Source: Euryarchaeota archaeon SCGC AAA252-I15
GTDB taxonomy: Archaea; Altiarchaeota; Altiarchaeia; IMC4; SCGC-AAA252-I15
Assembly: GCA_000402775.1 (NCBI GenBank)
Contig: AQSC01000059.1
Span: 4,257 to 68,256 of the forward strand
DNA length: 64,000 nucleotides
Reading direction: 5' to 3'
Numbering within the stretch: the stretch's first letter is position 1; the number at the start of each line of letters is the position of its first letter. The notes beneath the pieces were generated by a model. The model did no database searches. It was not told the DNA's origin and worked only from the letters and a program-made list of their open reading frames with translations. This document shows, one piece after another, positions 2,573-60,543 of this stretch. The position numbers and the translations under genes are program-made.

Positions 2573-5500
2573 ATGCAGCCCAAAAAGTTACCCCTAAAAG
2601 CCGAGTTTATATGGTTGATTTCCGTTAGCCTACTACTCTTTCCAACCTTATGTTCAGCCCAACCGACTGATGAACCAGTCGCCTACGAATTTTCCTACAT
2701 AAAATTTGCCATGTTCTACAATGGGGTTAACCTCTCCACTATTGAGAACATGATAAAAACATATATTGAGGCTAAGGGCGCTCAACAATTCACATTATTC
2801 GACAACTCCACGGCAGTATCCTCCCTTGAGGAATATGACGTAATAATCCAAATCGGCAATTACTTGAACACCACTCAAATAGATGCGATTGAAGATGCAA
2901 ACGGGAGTCTTATCCTCATACACGAGGGATTAACGAACATTAACACTACTCGGTGGGGCATCGAACAAGTATACCCGCCCGAAAACATTTCAAACTTATC
3001 GTTTATGATAGGCGCAGATTCCGGTCCAACACGAGGATATCCCGTGAACTCAACTTTTTCAATCCTAAAAACCAGTGCTGTATCCTTTAATGTAACTGGA
3101 AGTCACACTCAAAACCTTATAAACACGAACAACTCAAGAGCGGTTGTCGCAAGCAAACAACAACAAGTGGGGGGTAAGACAATCCTAATCGGATTTAATT
3201 TAACATCCTACCACGAAATTCGAATCTTAGATAAGGCAATATACTGGATTGAAGGTAAATCCCCGACAGTACAGCAAAACTCAAGATACTGTCTCTACGA
3301 ATGTCTTTCCCCCACAGTATGCAGATCCTGCTCTGATGCCGTAGTAGTCATCGAAGATCCCAGTGCAGTAACGCCACAAGAAAACTCATCCTACTACTTC
3401 ATCTATATCCAACACGGAGACATCGTAAATAAAATCGAGTATTCAGAGTTCACGCTCGCAAACCTGTCTGAAACCAAACTTATTGTTGTTCCAAAAGAAA
3501 ATAAAATAACCTCTCAGATACCCTCACTTAGATCCGATAACAAGAGTCTCATGTTCGTCCACCAAGGGGCGTTTGAGGCGTGGAATGACCACTTCAATGG
3601 ATTTGCATCCGAACTGGTTAATAAAACGAATATTACTAACGGCGACGCAATAATCGTGCAAAACAGGGAATATGAATTAACTTATGGTTATCCAGTGTCA
3701 TCTCACATTTACACTCAAAACGAAAGCACAAGGGTTTTAGCCGAAGTCCCCGGATTTACAACCCTTGTGAACACTTCTGATGGAAGTTTGTTGTCCTATG
3801 TGAACGGATCATCAAAAGTGGTTTTCTATGGATTCGATCCTTACGCAAGCCAAAGTACTCAATGTATGCCCATGGGTTATCATGGGGGGGTACTATATCT
3901 TAGGGCGGTTGAATGGGCGTTGGGTAATCTAAATGTCGGCCTACAACAACCCAACGAAATAACTTTTATTGTATACAACAACAATGTTATGGGCTTTTAT
4001 GGTTGTGGTAATACTCTCACCTTATCTGAAAATTCCACAGCGAATCGGCTTACTGGAAGGTATGAGTCTGGAACTGTTTCATTCATTGACTTATCGCTTG
4101 CTAATGCCACAAATTATTCAGCAACTTCGGTTGTGATTTCGATTTCTAGTGAGAGGGTTTCATCCAAGATTTCGGATTGGGTTAGCCTCAACAAAAGTTT
4201 ACTGTTGTTATATGAGGGTGCAGTGGACGTAAACATCACGTTACTCGGCGGGTCGAGTGAAAATGACTTTACATCCACGGGACCGGGTTATATCAGGGGT
4301 AATGTTGCAGGAAGTATATCGAGGGGATACCCCTACAATGCATACGTTCACACTCAAAATGATTCAGTGAGATATCTAACAGACACTCCCGGATTCTCTT
4401 CAATAGTAAATTACGGGTCAAAAGACATACTACAATCTAGAGAATCAGGGAATCGTATCGTAGCTTATGGATTCGATCCTTACCAGGCAGACGTAGACTC
4501 AACACCCCTCTGTCTTGGATACCACGGCTGGAAGCTTTTTGATAGGAGTGTGGACTGGCTGTTGTACTCTTTGAATATCTCAGCTCCGCAAGCTAAGCGA
4601 ATTGCAATACAATTTTACGGTGCGAATGAAAGCTGGTACTGTGATACTGGGCAGGAAAGCAAGGCTAGAAGGAGAATATCCGGGAAGGAGTATGGTGGTG
4701 GAAACGTGAGTAGTATCGACTTGTCTGTGGCGGACTTAACTGACTACTCTAACACTGAATTAATCATTATAGGTGATAGTTGGCGGGTTACCTCCATGAT
4801 TTCTGGATGGAAAGATGGCGGTAAGGACTTAATGTTTCTCATGCATGCTACTACTGATGCGACAAATACTTTCGGAGGGTCATCAGGAATCGACCTTACA
4901 AATGACACCCGAGTGAACTTGACATCTTACGCGGGGTCATTAGGTTTTATAACTGAAGGATACTCTCCCACGGGAATAATAGAATCTGACTTTGCACTTG
5001 GAAGAACCTGGGCTGATATAAGCGGATTCGCAATACTTGGTAGGAATGTAGACTCAAATACCATTCTCTCATCAAAACACACTTTAAGCTCTGATACTGT
5101 TGTCTACACACTTAATCTAACTGAATATGATAGTCCCTGCCGCGGTTACCACGGTTGGAAGCTTTTTGATAGGTCGGTTGAATGGCTTCTTGGAGAACTT
5201 ACAGTCCCAATTCCAAGAATTGATAGGATAGGTCTTGTAGTAAACATACTGTATAATGAAACTCATCAGTGCTTGTTGGGTGAGGAAGACGTGACGTTTG
5301 AGAGGATAGAATCCCTTGAAAATGTGTCTCTTGCGGGAATAAATACCACAACATTCGAGATATCGACGATAAGCACTGCCGACTTCACTGATACGGAGGC
5401 GGTGGTAATCACCGACTCGAACATCAACGCTGTCGGAACGTACTACGAACAGATTCTAAACGGTTATACCAAGGCCACCGCAGCCTCAAACGTTCTCATG

Positions 5501-30550: not shown

Positions 30551-31215
30551 ATGGAAAACATAGAAAAATCGCTTAAGGCACTTCAAGACGGCTCTTTCAT
30601 ACTCGTGCACGATTCCTCTGGGAGAGAAGACGAAACCGATCTTATAGTCGCCGCCGAAAAAATCACTCCAGCTCACGTACGCACGATGAGAAACGAGGGG
30701 GGAGGATTGATATGCACTGCCCTGGCAAAAGATTTAGCCGAAAAATTAAGTCTAGTCTTCATCCAAGACATATACCAAGCCGCAGCAAAATCCTTTCAAA
30801 TCCTCCCGGAACTTAAAGCCGACGACATACCCTACGACGAAAAATCATCTTTTTCCATAACCGTAAACCACAGGAAAACATTCACAGGAATAACCGACAC
30901 AGACAGGGCGCTCACCATACGGGAACTAGCCTACATCGCGAAAGCCGAGCCAAACCCACAGGCGTTTGGCTTGAATTTCCGAACACCCGGGCACATTCCA
31001 CTTCTTATCTCTTCAGGATTGGGCAAGCGGGAGGGACACACAGAACTTTCAATAGGACTTCTTGAGATGGCGGGGCTTACTCCAGTCTCCGTGGTTTGTG
31101 AGATGATGGACGATGAAACCTTCAAAGCCTTGACGGCGGAGAAGGCGAAGGCTTATGCAGAGAAAAACGGTCTAGTATTCCTTGAAGGATCTGAAATTCT
31201 AAATGCATATGAGAA

Positions 31216-31228
<13 letters not shown>
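30551..31228 (+). CDS. ribB: 3,4-dihydroxy-2-butanone-4-phosphate synthase
   Basis: VHDSSGREDETDLIVAAEKITPAHVRTMRNEGGGLICTAL and RTPGHIPLL. Confidence 0.9.
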
Positions 31229-32314
<1,086 letters not shown>

Positions 32315-49246: not shown

Positions 49247-49259
49247 AAAGGGGTTTGTT

Positions 49260-49333
49260 GGGTCCGTCGAGATTTGAACTCGAGTTCCTAGCTCCCAAAG
49301 CTAGAAGGATGGGCCAAGCTACCCCACGGACCC
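49260..49333 (-). tRNA. tRNA-Pro (anticodon UGG), no intron, CCA not encoded
   Basis: Minus strand: GGGUCCG UG GGGU AGCUUGGCCC AUCC U(U) CUAGC UUUGGGA GCUAG GAAC UCGAG UUCAAAU CUCGA CGGACCC, folded as a cloverleaf by hand. Confidence 0.85.
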
Positions 49334-49417
49334 TTCCGTGTCATCGAGCCGTAGCGAAGATGGCACCCGCATGTCAACTGGGCGTGACAGTTGGGGGTCA
49401 AGCTACCCCACGGACCC
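49334..49417 (+). repeat. 65-nt two-hairpin insert plus a 19-nt duplicate of the tRNA-Pro 5' end
   Basis: caagctaccccacggaccc occurs at 49315-49333 and again at 49399-49417. Hairpins GTGTCATC/GATGGCAC (49338-66) and TCAACTG/CAGTTGG (49374-94) lie between. Confidence 0.8.
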
Positions 49418-50212: not shown

Positions 50213-50325
50213 TTGTTTTCGAGTTTTTTAAATCACAACAGGCAGCCCAAGGATTCGAGTTCACATTCCCCTTAAAAAAGTGAGAAGACACCCTGAAAAA
50301 AGGAAAGCTTTTTATAGTAGAGTGA

Positions 50326-50386
50326 GTAATTAGTTACTAGTTAGTTACTGATTAGTAAATAGTTATTAACTAATTAGTTACTAATA
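50326..50386. promoter_or_regulatory. Operator-like TTAGTTACT repeat cluster upstream of the RHH gene
   Basis: TTAGTTACT at 50331-39, 50342-50 and 50375-83, plus TTAGTAA/TAGTTATTAACTAAT variants, downstream of the TATA-like TTTTATAG (50311-18). Confidence 0.55.
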
Positions 50387-50434
50387 TGTAAGCAGGGGTG
50401 TTTACGGGGTTAAACATGAAAAGTGTCGTAAACC

Positions 50435-50599
50435 ATGAGCAAGTTGATAGGGATCCGAGTAAGCGCAGGGATAGACGACATCCTGGACGAGATCTCTGGG
50501 AAACTAGGAAAGAAGAAATCGGTCTTAGCGCGCGAGCTTATGGAGCAGCGACTCTTCGAGATGAGTTTGGTTTCCACGAAACTTAAGAAAACAATGTAA
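50435..50599 (+). CDS. Ribbon-helix-helix (CopG-like) protein, 54 aa (below the ORF-track cutoff)
   Basis: MSKLIGIRVSAGIDDILDEISGKLGKKKSVLARELMEQRLFEMSLVSTKLKKTM has a beta-strand/helix/helix pattern. It competes with the overlapping ORF-track frame 50398-50586. Confidence 0.6.
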   Translation: MSKLIGIRVSAGIDDILDEISGKLGKKKSVLARELMEQRLFEMSLVSTKLKKTM

Positions 50600-50893
50600 G
50601 GCTCACATCGCTTAGTTGTGTGTGATTCAGCCACATCACCCCAACCACCTGGTGTGCCCGCTCAGTAGGGGGGTGGGCACACCGCATGGGGGGTGGATGA
50701 ATTTCTAGGATTTCTAATTCAGGATTATCGAGCCGCGAAGCGGTGAAGATAGTCCATTTGATGAACCTTTAGTAAAGGTTCTGCGAAAGAGAGCTGAAAC
50801 CAACCTTTTTCTTTGTCGGAGTTTCCCGACGAGAAACCGCGAGTTAATTGAGGGGTCTTACCGACCCCCCGGTAACGCACATTATAGAAGTAT
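50600..50893 (+). repeat. 290-nt non-coding hairpin array containing relatives of all three gene-5' inserts
   Basis: Hairpins GGTGTGCCC/GGGCACACC (50651-83), GGATTATC/GATAGTCC (50722-55), GAACCTTT/AAAGGTTC (50763-81), a ...GTCGG/CCGAC... hairpin within the 50811-50835 stretch, and a GGGGTC-ttacc-GACCCC hairpin at about 50851-50867. No ORF. Confidence 0.75.
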
Positions 50894-51649
50894 TTATTCT
50901 GTTTTCACTATCCGCCAGAGTTTGGCGGGCGCTCCCGCTCCGCCGACTGCGTGGATGCTGGTTTTTAGTTCATAACCTTCAAATTTTTCCATGTGCTGCT
51001 GAACCACTCTGTCGAATTTTTCAGCAAATTCTTTTCCCTCCTGAAATTTCATCCCTATGAGAACGCTCGCGCCATTCGGATTGCATGTGCCGGAGACATT
51101 GAGTTTCTGAAGCATGAGCCTGGCTAATTCCTCACCAGAGCCAGCAGATGGGAAACGGCAAGTCATCTGGTCGAAATGAGAGTTAGGGTGCTTAAGTAGT
51201 ATTTCCCCGAGAGAACCTTGCTTGACTATCAGATTCTGGCCTTCTGAAGGAATCCCCAAACGAGCCCACTCCGCCTTACGATGCTGAAAACGCTCTGTCC
51301 AAGCGTGGTATGTATTGGCTGCAATGGCCACGTCTATTGCATCGCTTTGGGCGAGAAGACACGCAAGAGGAGTTAATGGGGCAACCCTTTTACTCGTTGG
51401 TTTGAAGTGGCGGGGAATAGGCCCGGTTATGGTTTGGTACCGCCTGCCGCTTGCTTCAATGTCAGGGCCGATACCAGTTCCGAATAACTCATCGACGTAG
51501 CCCCCGTAAGCCATCTGTCTCTGGATTCTCTTTTGCGGATCAGTGACACGGATTATTTCTTGTAGAACACGCATTGCTGGATTTACAGGTATGGACCCTA
51601 CACCGTGTTTTAGAGCCTGAGGTGTTTGATCATGTCTGTAGATTGGCAT
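50894..51649 (-). CDS. Hypothetical protein (251 aa)
   Basis: ATG ORF with elevated GC. No motif recognised. Confidence 0.55.
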   Translation of the reverse strand: MPIYRHDQTPQALKHGVGSIPVNPAMRVLQEIIRVTDPQKRIQRQMAYGGYVDELFGTGIGPDIEASGRRYQTITGPIPRHFKPTSKRVAPLTPLACLLAQSDAIDVAIAANTYHAWTERFQHRKAEWARLGIPSEGQNLIVKQGSLGEILLKHPNSHFDQMTCRFPSAGSGEELARLMLQKLNVSGTCNPNGASVLIGMKFQEGKEFAEKFDRVVQQHMEKFEGYELKTSIHAVGGAGAPAKLWRIVKTE

Positions 51650-51711: not shown

Positions 51712-52749
51712 ATGAACACCCAAAGTATTTTATCTGTTGATGATGACCTGATTTTTAATCCTTCAAACAGGCGGGATTCCGCATTAAGGCTTTTGGACGG
51801 GGAGAAGGTTTTTGAGAAAATCACCCCGCATTTCTTGTCTTTCTACAACCTCTATTTCATATGGGTTTATTTAATGCTTTTAAGCGGGGTGATACTCCTT
51901 TACTACGACGTATTAATCGACAACTTAAAGTGGATTTTATCCGGCGCTACAGGAGTCTTCAAACTGCCCTTCGGGGATCTGGGAATGCTTTCAGAAGTCG
52001 GTTTTTTCAGTAACATACAATTATTTCTGTATGTTTTAATGGGTCAGGCATCATATATCATAAATAGCAGTGAATTCATTCTAGCAATACTCTGGCTTGT
52101 ACCAATCGCCTTCTTCTCAACAGTATTTTCCATACTTCGAATAGAGTGGAAATGGATACTAGTGATGATAGGTGTTGGAGCGGCAAGCATATTAATCACT
52201 TTTTTACTTGAGCTTCCCGGTGAATCAGTTTACTATATCTCAATAATAATCTCAATTTTAGGTTGTGTTGGAGTTGACTTGTATAGGAGGGCTCACAGAT
52301 TTTACATCACAAACTATAGGATAATAACCGAGCTGAAGTTTCTGGGTGTGAAGCAAAACACGTTAAGCTATGACAAGATAAACAATCTCATCGTGGAACA
52401 ATCCTTGATTGCAAGGATTTTTGATTTCGGGACTGTAATCCCGATTACTGCTTCTGGTTTGGGTATGGGCGAGGACTCGGCTTCAGTGAGCATTGGGGCG
52501 GCAGGAAGACTTGGAGGTAAAGGATTCATTGGAGGTGCCGTTACAGGAGGTAGAAGCATCGACATTCCAAGGACGAGGAGCCAGTACGCCCTGTTCGGGG
52601 TTTCTAATCCCAAGAGGATTTACCACATCCTGTCAAAGTTCATGCAAGAGTATGTGGAAGCACCTTATCTTAAGGACATGAGCGTGAATATTCGAAAGCT
52701 TTTAGAGGCGCAGGAAAAAAGAGTGGGTAAAGACGGCGAGCTACTTTAA
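51712..52749 (+). CDS. Membrane protein with bacterial PH-like (DUF304/YdbS-type) domain
   Basis: Four or more TM helices, then HRFYITNYRIITELKFLGVKQNTLSYDKINNLIVEQSLIARIFDFGTV. Gly-rich segment. Start at MNTQSIL preferred. Confidence 0.65.
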   Translation: MNTQSILSVDDDLIFNPSNRRDSALRLLDGEKVFEKITPHFLSFYNLYFIWVYLMLLSGVILLYYDVLIDNLKWILSGATGVFKLPFGDLGMLSEVGFFSNIQLFLYVLMGQASYIINSSEFILAILWLVPIAFFSTVFSILRIEWKWILVMIGVGAASILITFLLELPGESVYYISIIISILGCVGVDLYRRAHRFYITNYRIITELKFLGVKQNTLSYDKINNLIVEQSLIARIFDFGTVIPITASGLGMGEDSASVSIGAAGRLGGKGFIGGAVTGGRSIDIPRTRSQYALFGVSNPKRIYHILSKFMQEYVEAPYLKDMSVNIRKLLEAQEKRVGKDGELL

Positions 52750-53991
52750 AGCTTCTGGTATTTTTTGTTCCGCTATCAGGTCGCTGTAGGATCTTCGGGT
52801 TCTAATCAACTCGCCAATTCCACCCCTCACCAAAACTTCGCAGGGTAGGGGTTGGCTGTTGTATTCGCTCGCCATGGCAAACCCGTAGGCCCCGCAATCT
52901 TTTATTGAGATTATGTCTCCAACACTTGTTTTTGGAAGACTTCTGTCTCTTCCCAGTATGTCGCCGCTTTCACAAACGTTTCCTGCAACATCAACTAGTT
53001 CCTCATTCCCGGATTTTCCTAAAACAGTCATGTGATGGTAGGCGTCGTACAATGTAGGTCTTGCAAGAGTGTTGAAACCTGCATCCACGTTAACGAAATT
53101 TTTGTAGGGGGTCTTCTTCACAGAATTAACTTTAGTCAAGAGTACTCCAGCAGGGCCCACAATGTATCTTCCCGGCTCAAGGTACAGGTAGGGTTCATTT
53201 GAAAGATCTTCGAGTCCATTTAAAAAGTTTGGAAGTATTGCTTCAGCAAACTCTTTTGGAGTTAGAGTTTTCTCGCCTTGATGGGATATTCCAAGACCCC
53301 CTCCAAGGTCAATGAAATCCAACTCAACCCCTAATTCCTTTTTAAGCATAACCGCGAAGTCCATAAGCTTTGAAACCGCCTCTTCAAATGCTTGAGACTC
53401 GTGAATTTGAGATCCAATATGAGCGTGAACCCCAATGGGTTTCACACCATTTAATTCCAAGGCTTTTTCATAGGCCTTTAACGCAATATCACCTTCAAGG
53501 TGCAATCCAAATTTCGAATTCTTAAGACCCGTTGCAATCTTCGGGTGAGTCTTGGAGGAAACATCAGGATTCACCCTGAAACAAATTCTCGCAGTCTTCC
53601 CCCTTTCCTCTGCAATCGAAGAAAAAGTCAACAATTCCGAGACATTCCCGTGAGTTACGATAACATCCTCCTCTAAAGCCAATTCAAGCTCTTGCACGGT
53701 CTTGCTGCTTGAAGTGAAGATTATGTCTTCAGATTTAATTCCTGCCTTGCGAGCGATAAAAAGCTCCCCCCCTGATACAACGTCTGCCCCACAACCCTGC
53801 TTTGCCAGAAGTCGAAGCAGCGCCAGCGATGAATTGGCCTTAACCGCGTACATGACCTTCGTCTTCTTATATCTGCTCTTGAAGGCTTTGAGGAAACTAT
53901 TATACCTAGCTACAACTTCATCCCCATCGTAGACGTAAAGAGGAGTCCCGTAATCCTTTGCCAGTTGCACGAGCAGGGTGTCTTCAATCAT
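52741..53991 (-). CDS. lysA: Diaminopimelate decarboxylase
   Basis: GTPLYVYD, YAVKANSSLALLRLL (PLP Lys), HIGSQ, DLGGGLG, GRYIVGPAG, CESGD. Confidence 0.9.
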   Translation of the reverse strand: MIEDTLLVQLAKDYGTPLYVYDGDEVVARYNSFLKAFKSRYKKTKVMYAVKANSSLALLRLLAKQGCGADVVSGGELFIARKAGIKSEDIIFTSSSKTVQELELALEEDVIVTHGNVSELLTFSSIAEERGKTARICFRVNPDVSSKTHPKIATGLKNSKFGLHLEGDIALKAYEKALELNGVKPIGVHAHIGSQIHESQAFEEAVSKLMDFAVMLKKELGVELDFIDLGGGLGISHQGEKTLTPKEFAEAILPNFLNGLEDLSNEPYLYLEPGRYIVGPAGVLLTKVNSVKKTPYKNFVNVDAGFNTLARPTLYDAYHHMTVLGKSGNEELVDVAGNVCESGDILGRDRSLPKTSVGDIISIKDCGAYGFAMASEYNSQPLPCEVLVRGGIGELIRTRRSYSDLIAEQKIPEALK

Positions 53992-54007: not shown

Positions 54008-54716
54008 TTATCTATTAATCTTTTCGGAAATCTTTCTGAAAACACCTATTAGAGTGAAAGCCTCCCTACCCGACACGAACGCCCTGCCTAAAAGACTTCG
54101 AAAAGTTTTTTTCGCAAGCCCCCTCTCATAATCCCCGACGTGAACGGAATCAATTACAGAATCATACTTTTCAATCAACACATCTTTTTCCACCTTGTTG
54201 AGTCTCCTAAACTTTTTCCGCTTGTGTAATTTTTTTTCAAACTCGCTTCTCTTAAGCTCATAGAGTATGATGGCTGCCGACTGAGCTATATTGAGTGTGG
54301 GATAACTCGGGTTTGCGGGAATGCAAACTAGCACATCACATGACTTGATTTCATAATTGTTTAAACCATGGTCTTCACGTCCAAACACCAGTCCGATTTT
54401 ACCTGAAGTCTTAAGGGATTCCTGAAGGTGTTCAGGGGTAACTGGGTTTCTCATACTGTTTTTATCAGTGGCTGATATCGCGGAAGTTGCAACAAGAAAA
54501 TCAAACTCATTTTTCACTTCCTTAAAGTTTTTGAAAACGCGGGCGTTTTCAAGGACGTCAATGGCATGCATGCTCATCTTCCTTGCTTCCCCCCCCAAGT
54601 TTTGGGGGGTTTACGAGAACCAATTCTTCGAAACCGAAGTTTTTCATGATGCGGGCGATAGAACCTATGTTCCCATCATACAAGGGTTCGACCAAGACTA
54701 CGGAGTATTCTGCCAT
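54008..54716 (-). pseudogene. SpoU/TrmJ-like RNA 2'-O-methyltransferase, reading frame broken in an 8-nt homopolymer
   Basis: N-terminal part [37 protein letters not shown] (frame a). Remainder [19 protein letters not shown]...GLVFGREDHGL...CIPANPSYPTLNIAQSAAIILYEL (frame b). The frames join if the C8 run at 54589-96 is 7 nt. Confidence 0.75.
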
Positions 54717-54784
54717 TTTATTAGGTATCGTCGAGCAAGCGGGAGCGAGCGAAGACGGCACATTTGTCGTCGGCAAACTCCGAC
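54717..54784 (+). repeat. 68-nt two-hairpin insert between the trmJ-like 5' copies
   Basis: GTATCGTC/GACGGCAC (54725-61) then ATTTG and GTCGG/CCGAC (54769-84). 54763-87 matches 50811-35 at 23/25 in reverse-complement orientation; the segment is near-palindromic. Confidence 0.75.
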
Positions 54785-54870
54785 AAACCGAAGTTTTTCA
54801 TGATTCGTGCGATAGAACCTATGTTCCCATCATACAAGGGTTCGACCAGGATGATTGAGTAATCCGCCAT
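54721..54870 (-). other. Decoy ORF: diverged duplicate of the first 28 codons of the trmJ-like gene fused to insert sequence (49 codons)
   Basis: [28 protein letters not shown] + [28 protein letters not shown] double stop ends 1 nt before the downstream ATG at 54716. Confidence 0.6.
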
Positions 54871-54913
54871 AGTATTAATTTATTGTGGTTTATTGAAATA
54901 ACTTAATTGATTC

Positions 54914-56425: not shown

Positions 56426-56515
56426 TATTATTATTGTATATAAGTTACAATAGTATTTTACTCTGTTTAATAATTTTTTCGATAAAATTGAGAATCAATA
56501 AAATTTTAGTTATTA

Positions 56516-56929
56516 TTATTGTATTTTATTTACAATAATGTCTTGAAATTCAACTGAATAATTCCTCTTCAAGACTAAAAACAGGTAAATCTTCTTAAAT
56601 TGCGGATAAATTAAGTAAAAAAGACGAATCTTCCACTCATCAAACATTGAAATCCTCCCGTAATCCGAAAAGATCAGCTTGTCATCACGCTTCCCATCAT
56701 CGATTAATTTCACCTTACCCACAATAGGACACTCAACAACTTCACCCTGCTTAAGCCTTCGACCTAAAACTATCGCATCCTCCCCCAAACCATCCTCTGA
56801 AACAGTGCCTTCCACAAAACCATAATTGAATGGATTCGGAAACGGGGAAAACAACTCCTTGACAAATTCATTCCCCTCCAACCTATACTTCACAAAACTC
56901 CACTTCGGAGTCTCGACGACGACTCGCAT
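56516..56929 (-). CDS. Inorganic pyrophosphatase-like protein (short, divergent)
   Basis: VVVETPKWSFVKYRLE...PFPNPFNYGFVEGTVSEDGLGEDAIVLG...GKVKLIDDGKRDDKLIF resembles family I PPase, but DGDPLD is replaced by DGLGED. Confidence 0.55.
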   Translation of the reverse strand: MRVVVETPKWSFVKYRLEGNEFVKELFSPFPNPFNYGFVEGTVSEDGLGEDAIVLGRRLKQGEVVECPIVGKVKLIDDGKRDDKLIFSDYGRISMFDEWKIRLFYLIYPQFKKIYLFLVLKRNYSVEFQDIIVNKIQ

Positions 56930-56974: not shown

Positions 56975-58633
56975 ATGAGATTTAAGGAACTGACTGACGT
57001 ATTCGAGAAGATTGACGGCACCTCAAAGAGACTAGAGAAAACCGACATCATCGCAGAATTTCTAGGGAAAACCGACGACTACCTCATACCCACGTTATGT
57101 AATTTCCTGCAGGGAAGAGTCTTCCCCTTGTGGAGTGAAAGGGAGTTGGGCGTCGCTCAAAAGCTCATGGTGAAGTGCATTTCAACTGTTTCCGGCCGGG
57201 CCGAGAAGGAGATTGAAGGTGAGGTTAAGAATTTAGGCGACACGGGGGCTGCGGCGGAAAAAGTGTTATTAACTAAAAAACAGACTACCTTGTATTCAAG
57301 AACTCTTAATGTCGAAGACGTTGAAAACAGTTTGAAAAGACTGGCAGACCTTGGAGGGAAGGGAAGCCAAGACAAGAAGATGGCATACATCAAGGAGCTC
57401 TTGTCGTCTGCTGAAGGAAATGAGGCGAAGTTTATCGTAAGGATAATTTTAGGGGAGCTTCGACTTGGAGTTGGAGACGGCATAGTCAGGGACTCGATAG
57501 TCAAGGCCTTTGAAGTGCCGGTCGAGGAAGTTGAGAGGGCATATTACCTGACATCTGATTTGGGTGAAGTAGCTCGAACAGTGAAGATAAATGGTGTTTC
57601 AGGTTTGAAGGAGATTTCAATGGAGCCTGGAAGGCCCATCAAGGTGATGTTGGCGCAGAAAAAACAGGGTGTTAGGGAGGCTGTCGAAGATTTGGGTGAA
57701 GCAGCCTACGAAATAAAATATGATGGTGCAAGAGTCCAGATTCACAAGAAGGGGGATGAGGTTGTCCTTTACACTCGAAGACTTGAGAACGTGACCGACC
57801 AGTTTCCAGAGATAGTGAATGCCGCGAGAGACCACGTAAAAGTTGCGGCTGCGATAATTGAGGGGGAAATTGTCGCCATCACGATGATGGGGGATAGGAC
57901 TCCGCGCCCATTCCAAGATTTATCGCGAAGGATTAAGAGAAAATACAATATAGGTGAAGTTCAGAAGAAGATTCCAGTGGAAGTAAACTTATTCGACGTC
58001 CTATACATTGATGGAGAGAATACGCTCTCAACCCCTTTTTCCGAGCGTAGAAAGCTGTTGAAAAAGATTATCGATGCAACGGCTATTTTCAGGGTTGCCG
58101 AGCAGAAAGTCACCGCGAATCCCGACATAGCTGAAAATTTCTACAATCATGCACTCTCGATGAAACATGAGGGGGTGATGGTGAAGGTCTTAAACGCCCC
58201 GTACAAGCCGGGTTCTAGAGTCGGCTACATGTATAAGGTAAAGCCGATTATGGAGACTTTAGACTTGGTTGTTGTGGGAGCGACTTGGGGTGAAGGCCGC
58301 CGAGCAAACTGGCTTGGGTCTTACCTCCTAGCAGTTTTTGATGCGAACACCGGGGAGTTTCAGACTATTGGCCGCATGGCAACTGGCTTATCAGACCAGC
58401 AACTTGAAGAATACACTGAACTATTCAAACAATACATTATAAGAGAGTCCGGTCAAGACTTATCCATTAAACCTCACATAATATTTGAAGTCGCCTACGA
58501 AGAGATTCAGAAAAGCCCGACTTATGATTCAGGGTATGCGCTTAGGTTTCCAAGGCTTGTGCGCCTTCGAGACGATAAGGGACCTCAAGACGCAGACTCC
58601 CTTGAGAGAGTTGAGGAGATACTTAAAAAATGA
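56975..58633 (+). CDS. lig: ATP-dependent DNA ligase
   Basis: Adenylation motif EIKYDGARVQIHK, plus EGEIVA, LFDVLYIDGE, EGVMVK, RFPRLVRLRDDK. Confidence 0.95.
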   Translation: MRFKELTDVFEKIDGTSKRLEKTDIIAEFLGKTDDYLIPTLCNFLQGRVFPLWSERELGVAQKLMVKCISTVSGRAEKEIEGEVKNLGDTGAAAEKVLLTKKQTTLYSRTLNVEDVENSLKRLADLGGKGSQDKKMAYIKELLSSAEGNEAKFIVRIILGELRLGVGDGIVRDSIVKAFEVPVEEVERAYYLTSDLGEVARTVKINGVSGLKEISMEPGRPIKVMLAQKKQGVREAVEDLGEAAYEIKYDGARVQIHKKGDEVVLYTRRLENVTDQFPEIVNAARDHVKVAAAIIEGEIVAITMMGDRTPRPFQDLSRRIKRKYNIGEVQKKIPVEVNLFDVLYIDGENTLSTPFSERRKLLKKIIDATAIFRVAEQKVTANPDIAENFYNHALSMKHEGVMVKVLNAPYKPGSRVGYMYKVKPIMETLDLVVVGATWGEGRRANWLGSYLLAVFDANTGEFQTIGRMATGLSDQQLEEYTELFKQYIIRESGQDLSIKPHIIFEVAYEEIQKSPTYDSGYALRFPRLVRLRDDKGPQDADSLERVEEILKK

Positions 58634-60216: not shown

Positions 60217-60543
60217 TTACCTTAATATTATGTCTAGTATGGGGTTTACGACGATCTTGAATAAGAGAGCCGCAACCATTATCATAACTCCCCAACCAAT
60301 GAACTGTATTCCCTTGTCCATGAAACTTAGGGGAAGCATCACATATAAATATAATTTAGGCCACAACCACATGCAAAATCCTATAAACACAAAAAGCAGG
60401 CCAAACCCCATCGCCTTGCGAGGCAGAACATTCCTAGCCTTATGGACGTGGGAAATGTTTGAAGATTTCTCATCTTCCTCAATCAGCTCTATGTCCCCTA
60501 TTGTGCCAGAAGCATCCACACCAGAACGATCCCTACCCTTCAT
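60217..60543 (-). CDS. Hypothetical membrane protein (2-3 TM)
   Basis: Hydrophobic segments GFGLLFVFIGFCMWLW and IGWGVMIMVAALLF. Confidence 0.45.
   Translation of the reverse strand: MKGRDRSGVDASGTIGDIELIEEDEKSSNISHVHKARNVLPRKAMGFGLLFVFIGFCMWLWPKLYLYVMLPLSFMDKGIQFIGWGVMIMVAALLFKIVVNPILDIILR

Follow-up and report, generated by a model that had tools for sequence, protein, structure and literature searches.

Short hairpin units beside displaced gene ends in Altiarchaeota, and the insertion of one at the start of a trmJ-like gene

The DNA considered here is a stretch of 64,000 nucleotides (nt) from Euryarchaeota archaeon SCGC AAA252-I15, a member of the Altiarchaeota (assembly GCA_000402775.1, contig AQSC01000059.1, positions 4,257 to 68,256 of the forward strand; hereafter the window, numbered from its first letter), and the subject is a 154-nt block at the 5′ end of a SpoU/TrmJ-like methyltransferase gene, here called trmJ, together with related hairpin units at the ends of other genes. 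The gene lies on the minus strand at 54008–54716 and encodes 235 amino acids (aa) if one homopolymer is read as C7, being frameshifted in the window itself; a domain search places SpoU_methylase (PF00588, E = 3.4e-29) at residues 5–152 of the product, and homologues carry the names TrmJ/YjtD or TrmH family in their sources; the source names of homologues likewise point to an Altiarchaeota archaeon. A gene for a HerA-like ATPase stands divergently to trmJ, and lysA lies downstream.

A repeat search of the window shows that the 5′ end of trmJ is present twice, as direct repeats of 93 nt at 54631–54723 and 54785–54877 (88% identity, spacing 154), each spanning a 7-nt leader (in the context TAATAnnATG), the ATG and the first 28 trmJ codons; a preliminary description, drawn from the letters of the window and their open reading frames (ORFs), had given these as 86 nt, to which the leader adds the remainder. 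Both copies read on the minus strand and encode 28-residue peptides. The downstream copy runs straight on into the gene body and supplies the functional ATG at 54716, while the upstream copy, identified as a ‘decoy’ by the repeat search and by orthologues with an empty site, has its ATG at 54870 and opens the 49-aa ORF that had been predicted (54721–54870, minus strand), in which 28 TrmJ codons are followed by 21 that run through the insert to a TAA TAA, 4 nt before the real ATG. Between the copies lie 61 nt (54724–54784; 68 nt in the preliminary description, which also recognised their hairpin character) that fold into two hairpins, H1a and H2, and on reading have no homology to the downstream trmJ sequence. 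H1a (TTGTCGGAGTTTGCCGACGACAAA, 54763–54786, minus strand) forms the left end of the unit, abuts the decoy and recurs elsewhere; H2 (54725–54761, minus strand) is built as GTGCCGTC, a loop of the form TTCGCT..GCTC and GACGATAC, with a conserved C·A mismatch, and is supported by folding and by covariation. The junction itself falls in a palindrome, CTTCG-GTTT-CGAAG.

The 154-nt structure recurs in independent assemblies: in JGI contigs L001, L002 and L037–L042 (contigs other than that of the window are given L numbers throughout), in ENA and Logan contigs, and in the GenBank metagenome-assembled genome JBDRAY01 (L034). One arrangement is found in 19 contigs of the species, with seven listed places spanning the 5′ end of trmJ, and the insertion is fixed in the window's species. 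An assembler that had joined two strain alleles could have left such a repeat, and the Logan contigs do break inside it, as is usual for k-mer assemblers at repeats; but the identical structure in more than 10 independent assemblies from different pipelines and samples, and diverged versions both in JBDRAY01, a close relative and second species, and in L045, a third lineage, refute an artefact of this kind, to which we attach next to no probability.

Empty sites are present in three syntenic contigs (L006, L009 and L011), whose TrmJ proteins are 76–71% identical to that of the window and in which the starts of the HerA-like gene and trmJ lie 36–43 nt apart. In the window it is the decoy ATG (54870) that lies 43 nt from the divergent HerA ATG (54914), as at the empty sites, and the upstream copy therefore sits at the native location, together with the promoter region native to it. 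The comparison shows that 154 nt were inserted after codon 28 of trmJ and that the insertion is lineage-specific: a unit at this gene is found in the window lineage and in L045, and is absent from L006 (the sister of L045), L009 and L011. The preliminary description had named the lack of any empty site or related insertion as an outcome that would speak against its reading; both have been found.

The two copies differ at 9 (window) or 12 (L001) of 84 coding nt, with no difference at codon position 2 and with three to four amino-acid changes (E/D, V/I, V/I, D/E). Under simulated random substitution so few amino-acid changes arise with P = 0.01 (window) or P = 0.003 (L001), and changes that are all conservative with P < 1e-4, a non-neutral pattern that marks the copies as two functional alleles and not as a gene end with its decaying duplicate. 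Local tandem duplication by slippage or unequal crossing-over, with filler DNA and subsequent neutral decay, would explain direct repeats in tandem orientation, but it is refuted, and keeps only a vanishing share of our confidence: the substitutions are not neutral, the 61-nt filler belongs to a conserved family found elsewhere and is not homologous to the downstream gene, and the copies in L045 are strongly different over their first nucleotides and nearly identical beyond. A diversity-generating retroelement was ruled out on inspection, the differences not being adenine-specific, and a CRISPR-like solitary repeat or off-target spacer insertion was rejected, the repeats being variable in length and the copies diverged.

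Evidence that one copy is foreign comes from L045 (GCA_043822165.1), which carries a homologous unit at the same trmJ site, with the same H1a variant (TTTGCCGACGACAAA), and whose TrmJ is 71% identical to the window's. The decoy ORF there is 47 aa long and the repeat extends over 77 nt (97% identity); ahead of a part that is 97% identical, the first 15 nt of the copies hold 9 differences. Compared with the native start of L006 over those 15 nt, the decoy (ATGGTTGAAG..) agrees at 12 positions and the functional copy at 8; MPEFA, the beginning of the functional copy, is shared with many other Altiarchaeota TrmJ proteins. Three neighbouring proteins place L045 as sister to the empty-site L006 (75–89% identity), with the window lineage most distant (62–75%). 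Together these comparisons favour the gain by L045 of the unit and a foreign gene tip after its split from L006; three or more precise losses, each through recombination between the repeats, could give the same distribution. The proposal that these were two constrained copies, one of them from another genome, is thus upheld by the substitution simulation and by the L045 decoy tip, and the neutral pattern that would have told against it was not observed. Exchange between the copies also appears to continue: the upstream copy of L001 lacks a patch that looks gene-converted in the window, and the upstream copies of the window, L001 and JBDRAY01 differ mostly at positions at which one of the three agrees with the functional copy, which points to ongoing gene conversion.

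The frameshift of the window gene lies outside the repeats, in a C8 tract (G8 on the gene strand) at 54589–54596 that shifts trmJ by +1 at about codon 42. The tract is C7 in all other contigs of the species, among them L001 and L002, which encode an intact TrmJ of 235 aa; it is the sole indel across 11.7 kb between the window and L001, and trmJ is called intact in every listed contig of the species that spans its 5′ end. The eighth C might represent a rare allele, have arisen by slippage at a C6..G8 hairpin or be one error of assembly. In gene calls trmJ begins at a GTG within the unit, giving a protein of 250 aa instead of 235 (L001 5096–5848, L037–L044), as it does in the seven listed places that span its 5′ end; this longer start is probably an annotation artefact of the insertion, since the extension is not conserved in L045, where a TAA stands three codons upstream. 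In the same comparison of the window with L001 (99.6% identical), substitutions are strongly clustered at 52602–52807, 54104–54200, 58369–58615 and 60430–60440, a distribution that suggests frequent import of diverged alleles by homologous recombination.

The hairpins of the trmJ insert are not confined to this gene. Pattern scans find H1a again in the window at 50812–50837 and in L012, L013/L018, L019, L026, L033, L034, L036 and L045, its sequence being conserved across Altiarchaeota contigs of 34–49% GC. H2 is shown to be a conserved fold: across six units, those at trmJ and tRNA-Pro included, 97.6% of the cells of the stem are paired and four of the seven pairs show compensatory changes, a level reached by 1 of 500 shuffles, and sliding the partners against one another abolishes the pairing. 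The C·A mismatch is invariant at the fifth position from the loop, and the loops start with TTC, end with CTC and hold CGCT-like repeats between. Covariation was used as the evidence for the hairpin because folding energy is not significant. A covariance model built on the six units finds further copies outside the training set, including a third H2 of the window at 50719–50758 (minus strand), with a hit of 43 bits reported for H2; a joint model of H1 and H2 was dropped in favour of H2 alone because the two forms of the left hairpin, H1a and H1b, align poorly. A supposed fourth H2 at 50918–50952 was ruled out, because the stretch encodes VGGAGAPAKLW, a conserved part of a host gene, and Rfam has no match for the units at gathering or E-value thresholds.

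Where H1a joins its target the two share GGTT or TT (trmJ CGGTTT|, L019 AGGTT|, L012 TCGGTT|, L026 CAATT|), and several of these junctions sit in hairpin loops, namely a D-loop, T-loops and the palindrome at trmJ; the junctions of H1b have no common motif. The residues LSEF, with which the decoy continues past the repeat, were considered as residual trmJ sequence and dropped, the same bases being the H1a module, a reading partly revived by L045, whose native gene reads GTGTCGGA at the junction.

A common layout is shared by at least eight sites, consisting of a displaced gene-end fragment that is still joined to the outer flank, H1, H2, 0–900 nt of cargo, and the functional gene with its replacement end. 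The preliminary description had seen the same architecture at tRNA-Pro and ribC, and this is supported: towards the gene, the inserts at trmJ, tRNA-Pro and ribC each terminate with a hairpin of H2 design, and further sites were found in other contigs. At tRNA-Pro (49334–49417, minus strand) a 23-nt 5′ decoy (49395–49417) is followed by a 61-nt unit of H1b and H2 (49334–49394) and by the intact tRNA gene (49259–49333). At ribC (31215–31423, plus strand) a 39-nt 5′ decoy (31215–31253) overlaps the ribB stop, and a multi-hairpin unit of 131 nt (31254–31384) ends in an H2-type hairpin and a Shine–Dalgarno (SD)-like GAGGTGGATGA ahead of the functional ribC start at 31385; the unit is also present in JBDRAY01, and in two other lineages (L046 and L047) the site is empty and ribB and ribC overlap by 8 nt. 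The ribC copies differ by synonymous changes only, AAG/AAA and TTC/TTT in the window and TGT/TGC, GAT/GAC, TTT/TTC and CGC/AGA in L048.

Outside the window, units stand at the 3′ ends of a tRNA-Leu-like gene in L019, the tRNA identity of which was confirmed, and of a Trm112-like gene in L012, where the left hairpin is H1b as at tRNA-Pro and the copies again differ synonymously only (GAG/GAA, AAA/AAG); a tRNA-Met-like gene has a unit at its 5′ end in L012 and L033 and another at its 3′ end in L012. Units are oriented sense to the gene at 5′ ends and antisense to it at 3′ ends, and their polarity therefore follows the gene body and not transcription. The family thus recurs, and with fixed polarity. 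Ordinary intergenic hairpins, such as terminators or processing signals, that stood upstream of trmJ in a related genome could have been imported without any dedicated mobility by homology-facilitated illegitimate recombination, joined through homology towards the gene and illegitimately, at microhomology, on the far side, the duplication being a by-product, and such events would be in keeping with the frequent recombination of diverged alleles seen as clustered patches against L001, with junctions that share only TT or GGTT with the target, and with an H1a downstream of tRNA-Ser that has no obvious duplication. We hold this explanation to be unlikely, as independent events have joined at the same first bases of H1a (trmJ, L019, L026 and the tRNA-Met of L012), and as invariant polarity and the same modules at at least eight gene ends within about 170 kb are too regular for accidents.

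The units might alternatively act as RNA, the insert and one repeat forming a bulge-helix-bulge intron or a processed RNA whose true first exon is the upstream copy. H2 does covary like a structured RNA, the D-loop and T-loop positions entered by H1a are also sites of non-canonical tRNA introns, and the decoy keeps an intact TrmJ-like N-terminus; the antisense orientation at 3′ ends, however, does not fit, no bulge-helix-bulge motif can be drawn at the junctions on inspection, the decoy of L019 cannot form a T-stem when its base-pairing is checked by hand, the cargo of L026 is protein-coding, and no Rfam family matches, all of which leaves an RNA element very improbable.

The size of the interior bears on a further possibility. 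Interiors made of H1 and H2 alone measure 61 nt at trmJ, 61 nt at tRNA-Pro, 64 nt in L045 (counted by reading) and about 60 nt at Trm112. In L026, by contrast with these, the 3′ end of the arginyl-tRNA synthetase (ArgRS) gene is duplicated over about 190 nt (about 90% identity), and an ORF of 273 aa lies between H2 and the restored end; the differences between the copies are largely synonymous or conservative as judged by eye, without a count. The cargo ORF (800–1621) encodes an N-terminal membrane segment with a weak match to DUF4145 and Swt1-like HEPN domains, is not a recombinase, and looks like a defence or abortive-infection passenger on the strength of its sequence. A large virus or plasmid with its own integrase could have entered the 5′ end of trmJ between attL and attR and later been deleted to 61 nt, since att-like imperfect direct repeats and a restored gene end are what such elements leave, and the version in L026 still holds about 900 nt of cargo. 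A relic of this sort seems improbable to us: at least five independent sites have an interior of H1 and H2 only, a uniformity not to be expected of random deletions; the structure of H2 is under selection; and the cargo of L026 follows H2 instead of lying between H1 and H2, a position that does not fit, so that the two hairpins are not a pair of surviving termini.

The 154-nt block at trmJ is, in our judgement, probably a small non-autonomous element inserted in the gene by a circle or Campbell-type event, with gene conversion afterwards and expression of the gene by way of the decoy. Such an element would consist of the 61-nt H1a–H2 module, of optional cargo in its larger relatives, and of its own copy of the displaced gene end, which at trmJ would be the 7-nt leader and first 86 nt of a different trmJ allele. 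In the simplest topology compatible with every case, a small circle with the order H1–H2–(cargo)–gene end would insert into the homologous gene end, making the downstream copy (54631–54723) the putatively element-borne, xenologous one; the native 5′ end would stay with the native promoter and open the 49-aa decoy ORF, the protein would remain intact, the element-borne 5′ end now being joined to the gene body, and the two copies would later swap patches by gene conversion. Read out of the downstream copy, the excised circle would join the end of the gene copy to H1 as ...AACTTCGGTTT|GTCGG. We infer both the circle-based mechanism and a recombinase acting in trans, for which an integrase-like enzyme, a single-strand hairpin-recognising enzyme (of the HUH or attC-like kind), or host homologous recombination on a circle made by either would be candidates. 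The covarying H2 and its fixed mismatch suggest recognition of folded single strands, and the diversity of targets suggests that specificity may come from the carried gene end and not from a fixed att core.

On a broader and more tentative view, for which we would put the chances at somewhat under even, Altiarchaeota harbour an undescribed class of non-autonomous ‘spare-end’ elements, each an H1/H2 module of about 60 nt, in some with cargo of the HEPN-like kind, and a copy of a gene end, that would home to and repair that gene (tRNA or protein-coding, at either end), spread between lineages, and integrate in a homology-programmed manner, through a trans-acting recombinase that would recognise folded single strands and take the carried gene end as its guide to the target.

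Several observations weigh against insertion by such an element. The folding energies of the units are not exceptional, that of the 61-nt insert being ordinary (z = −1.1 as RNA and about 0 as DNA). The patchy distribution of the trmJ unit could also come from repeated precise loss through recombination between the repeats. Aligning both trmJ copies to homologues, the means proposed in the preliminary description for recognising the native one, resolves the window weakly as to which copy is foreign; at six of eight differing sites the upstream copy has the L011 state or is nearer to it (by reading). None of the units has a visible gene for a recombinase, integrase, Rep or transposase beside it; the trmJ interior of 61 nt is without an ORF, and its neighbours are HerA, LysA and host genes. 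Neither an excised circle nor an attP form was observed in assembled contigs, and the units have no match in viral contigs (scans for H1a and H1b) or in phages and plasmids (blastn), so that no autonomous parent is known. Finally, the targets vary from unit to unit, and a single classical sequence-specific integrase would not explain them.

Two ORFs of the window were considered as a recombinase or regulator and rejected, a 251-aa gene and a ribbon-helix-helix (RHH)-like ORF, as neither has a match in Pfam, NCBIfam, PHROG or PDB and the former is single-copy and syntenic in relatives. They adjoin or lie in a spacer at 50213–50893, between an AIM24 gene and the 251-aa host gene, that is free of long ORFs. 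Within it, AT-rich TAGTTACT-type repeats (50320–50385) and the 54-aa RHH-like ORF (50435–50599) are accompanied by a hairpin (GTGTGCCC..GGGCACAC) with CATGGGGGGTGGATGAAT after it, a combination similar to that at the ribC unit's right end, and at 50719–50837 by an H2 (minus strand, 50719–50758), a further hairpin (50763–50781) and an H1a (plus strand, 50812–50837). The spacer looks like several unit modules set back to back, without clear duplications.

Other features were noted in the same contigs. In L012 (8663–9087) a second, colinear copy stands ahead of an intron-less tRNA-Ser(GCU) gene and is interrupted twice, by 86 nt after the anticodon and by 57 nt in the T-loop. Each of these inserts has two hairpins, and the first begins with the 3′ trailer sequence of the intact copy; the split copy may represent a paralogue with several introns or else decoys nested in one another. 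In the 5′ unit of tRNA-Met in L033 (JBDRAY01, about 2995–3130) a nested two-hairpin insert of about 48 nt occupies the H1a loop and is absent from the homologue in L012. JBDRAY01 also has, in L034 (2237–3029) at the place corresponding to about 56940 of the window, an extra gene (~247 aa, ~790 nt) between the pyrophosphatase and DNA ligase genes, which was rejected as a related element, being an unrelated gene without flanking repeats. A 34-nt AT-rich direct repeat (56426–56459 and 56511–56544, 82% identity, spacing 85) lies where the 3′ ends of the HerA and pyrophosphatase genes converge.

The layout of its leader suggests how trmJ would be expressed behind the decoy. Inside the trmJ unit neither a TATA-like box nor an SD motif can be seen, and the native promoter has a leaderless appearance, so that the gene would be transcribed from that promoter and the real AUG reached by termination and reinitiation after translation of the decoy ORF. 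The stop of the decoy falls 4 nt before the real ATG at trmJ in the window and 13 nt before it in L045, and overlaps by 13 nt at ribC; a shuffled unit keeps the decoy frame open 61% of the time, and with an open frame so common by chance, the positions of the decoy stops are weak evidence for coupling. The ribosome relay suggested in the preliminary description, a form of translational coupling through an upstream ORF, is plausible at trmJ as a reasonable inference from the sequence and no more.

Gene-end replacement has well-described precedents among larger elements. The dusA islands replace the 5′ end of dusA, into which they insert, and leave a remnant of it (PMC4482086). The trmJ unit resembles them in that the 5′ coding end of a housekeeping gene is entered, a new 5′ end is supplied and a remnant kept, in that attL and attR correspond to imperfect direct repeats, and in that empty and occupied alleles coexist; it differs from them in scale, the islands having tens of kb, their own tyrosine integrase and a 21-bp att core and the units here an interior of 61–131 nt without an ORF, and the Altiarchaeota units, unlike the islands, have many target genes, common hairpin modules and an archaeal host. 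Three marks of a gene-restoring element are present at trmJ, namely flanking imperfect repeats, empty sites, and a foreign replacement end with the native fragment retained, and an integrase of its own is absent. In the phage 21/e14 system of Escherichia coli icd, the prophage-borne gene end differs mainly synonymously from the native one, the native fragment persisting as a pseudogene copy; that system has a 3′-end target and a full prophage with integrase, and is not known to have a conserved hairpin module. Partial tRNA genes flank integrated elements in archaea, for example PYG1 in Pyrococcus yayanosii (PMC9897764). There, as at the tRNA-Pro, tRNA-Leu and tRNA-Met units, a partial and a complete tRNA gene form direct repeats, but the inserts are viral or plasmid DNA of 9–23 kb, in place of the 61–140 nt found here, where both ends of one tRNA gene can be occupied (L012).

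Miniature elements and hairpin-based systems offer partial parallels. Cis-mobilisable elements (CIMEs) and MITEs (miniature inverted-repeat transposable elements) lack genes, retain only recombination sites and depend on an enzyme supplied in trans, in which they are similar to the units described here. CIMEs are, however, kb-sized and bounded by the att sites of one known integrase, and MITEs have terminal inverted repeats and short target-site duplications of fixed length; neither holds for the units, in which repeat searches of the window found no terminal inverted repeats and of which the flanking repeats are diverged and variable in length (23, 39, 93 and about 190 nt). Rolling-circle capture by ISCR1/IS91 elements gives rise to complex class 1 integrons with a duplicated 3′ conserved segment (3′-CS). 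The likeness lies in one defined end, adjacent DNA of variable extent co-mobilised as a circle, and re-insertion by captured homology that leaves a flanking partial duplication; as those elements encode an HUH Rep-type transposase and none is seen here, the analogy is purely topological. In the palindrome-associated transposable elements (PATEs) of the IS200/IS605 group and in the attC sites of integrons, short imperfect hairpins are conserved in fold and mismatches rather than in sequence. The covarying H2 and the possible short GGTT target motif at H1a ends recall these systems, which, unlike the units, are not known to leave long diverged flanking repeats or to bring along a new end for the gene; neither a TnpA nor an IntI was identified, although a genome-wide search for TnpA was not made. 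Searches of the literature for introns, mobile elements or repeats of Altiarchaeota gave nothing that describes the units and yielded only general precedents. The family is probably a miniature, integrase-less form of gene-end-restoring elements, undescribed as far as the literature searched shows.

If this reading is true, target-repairing integration also exists in a form of 60–130 nt that is abundant in one archaeal phylum, and is not limited to integrase-encoding viruses and islands. The units create decoy start codons, false N-terminal extensions (250 against 235 aa), partial tRNA genes and contig breaks. Through them essential genes, trmJ, ribC, ArgRS and tRNAs among them, would come to be expressed downstream of a remnant mini-ORF or of a leader that is long and structured, which makes these loci natural systems in which to study translation reinitiation on leaderless mRNAs of archaea. 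On the broader view given above, such elements, at about three to five units per 64 kb, would influence the 5′ leaders of many housekeeping genes and the places at which their translation begins. The conserved H1/H2 modules provide a handle for finding the putative recombinase, and, if the carried fragment sets the target, that enzyme might be of interest for programmable integration.

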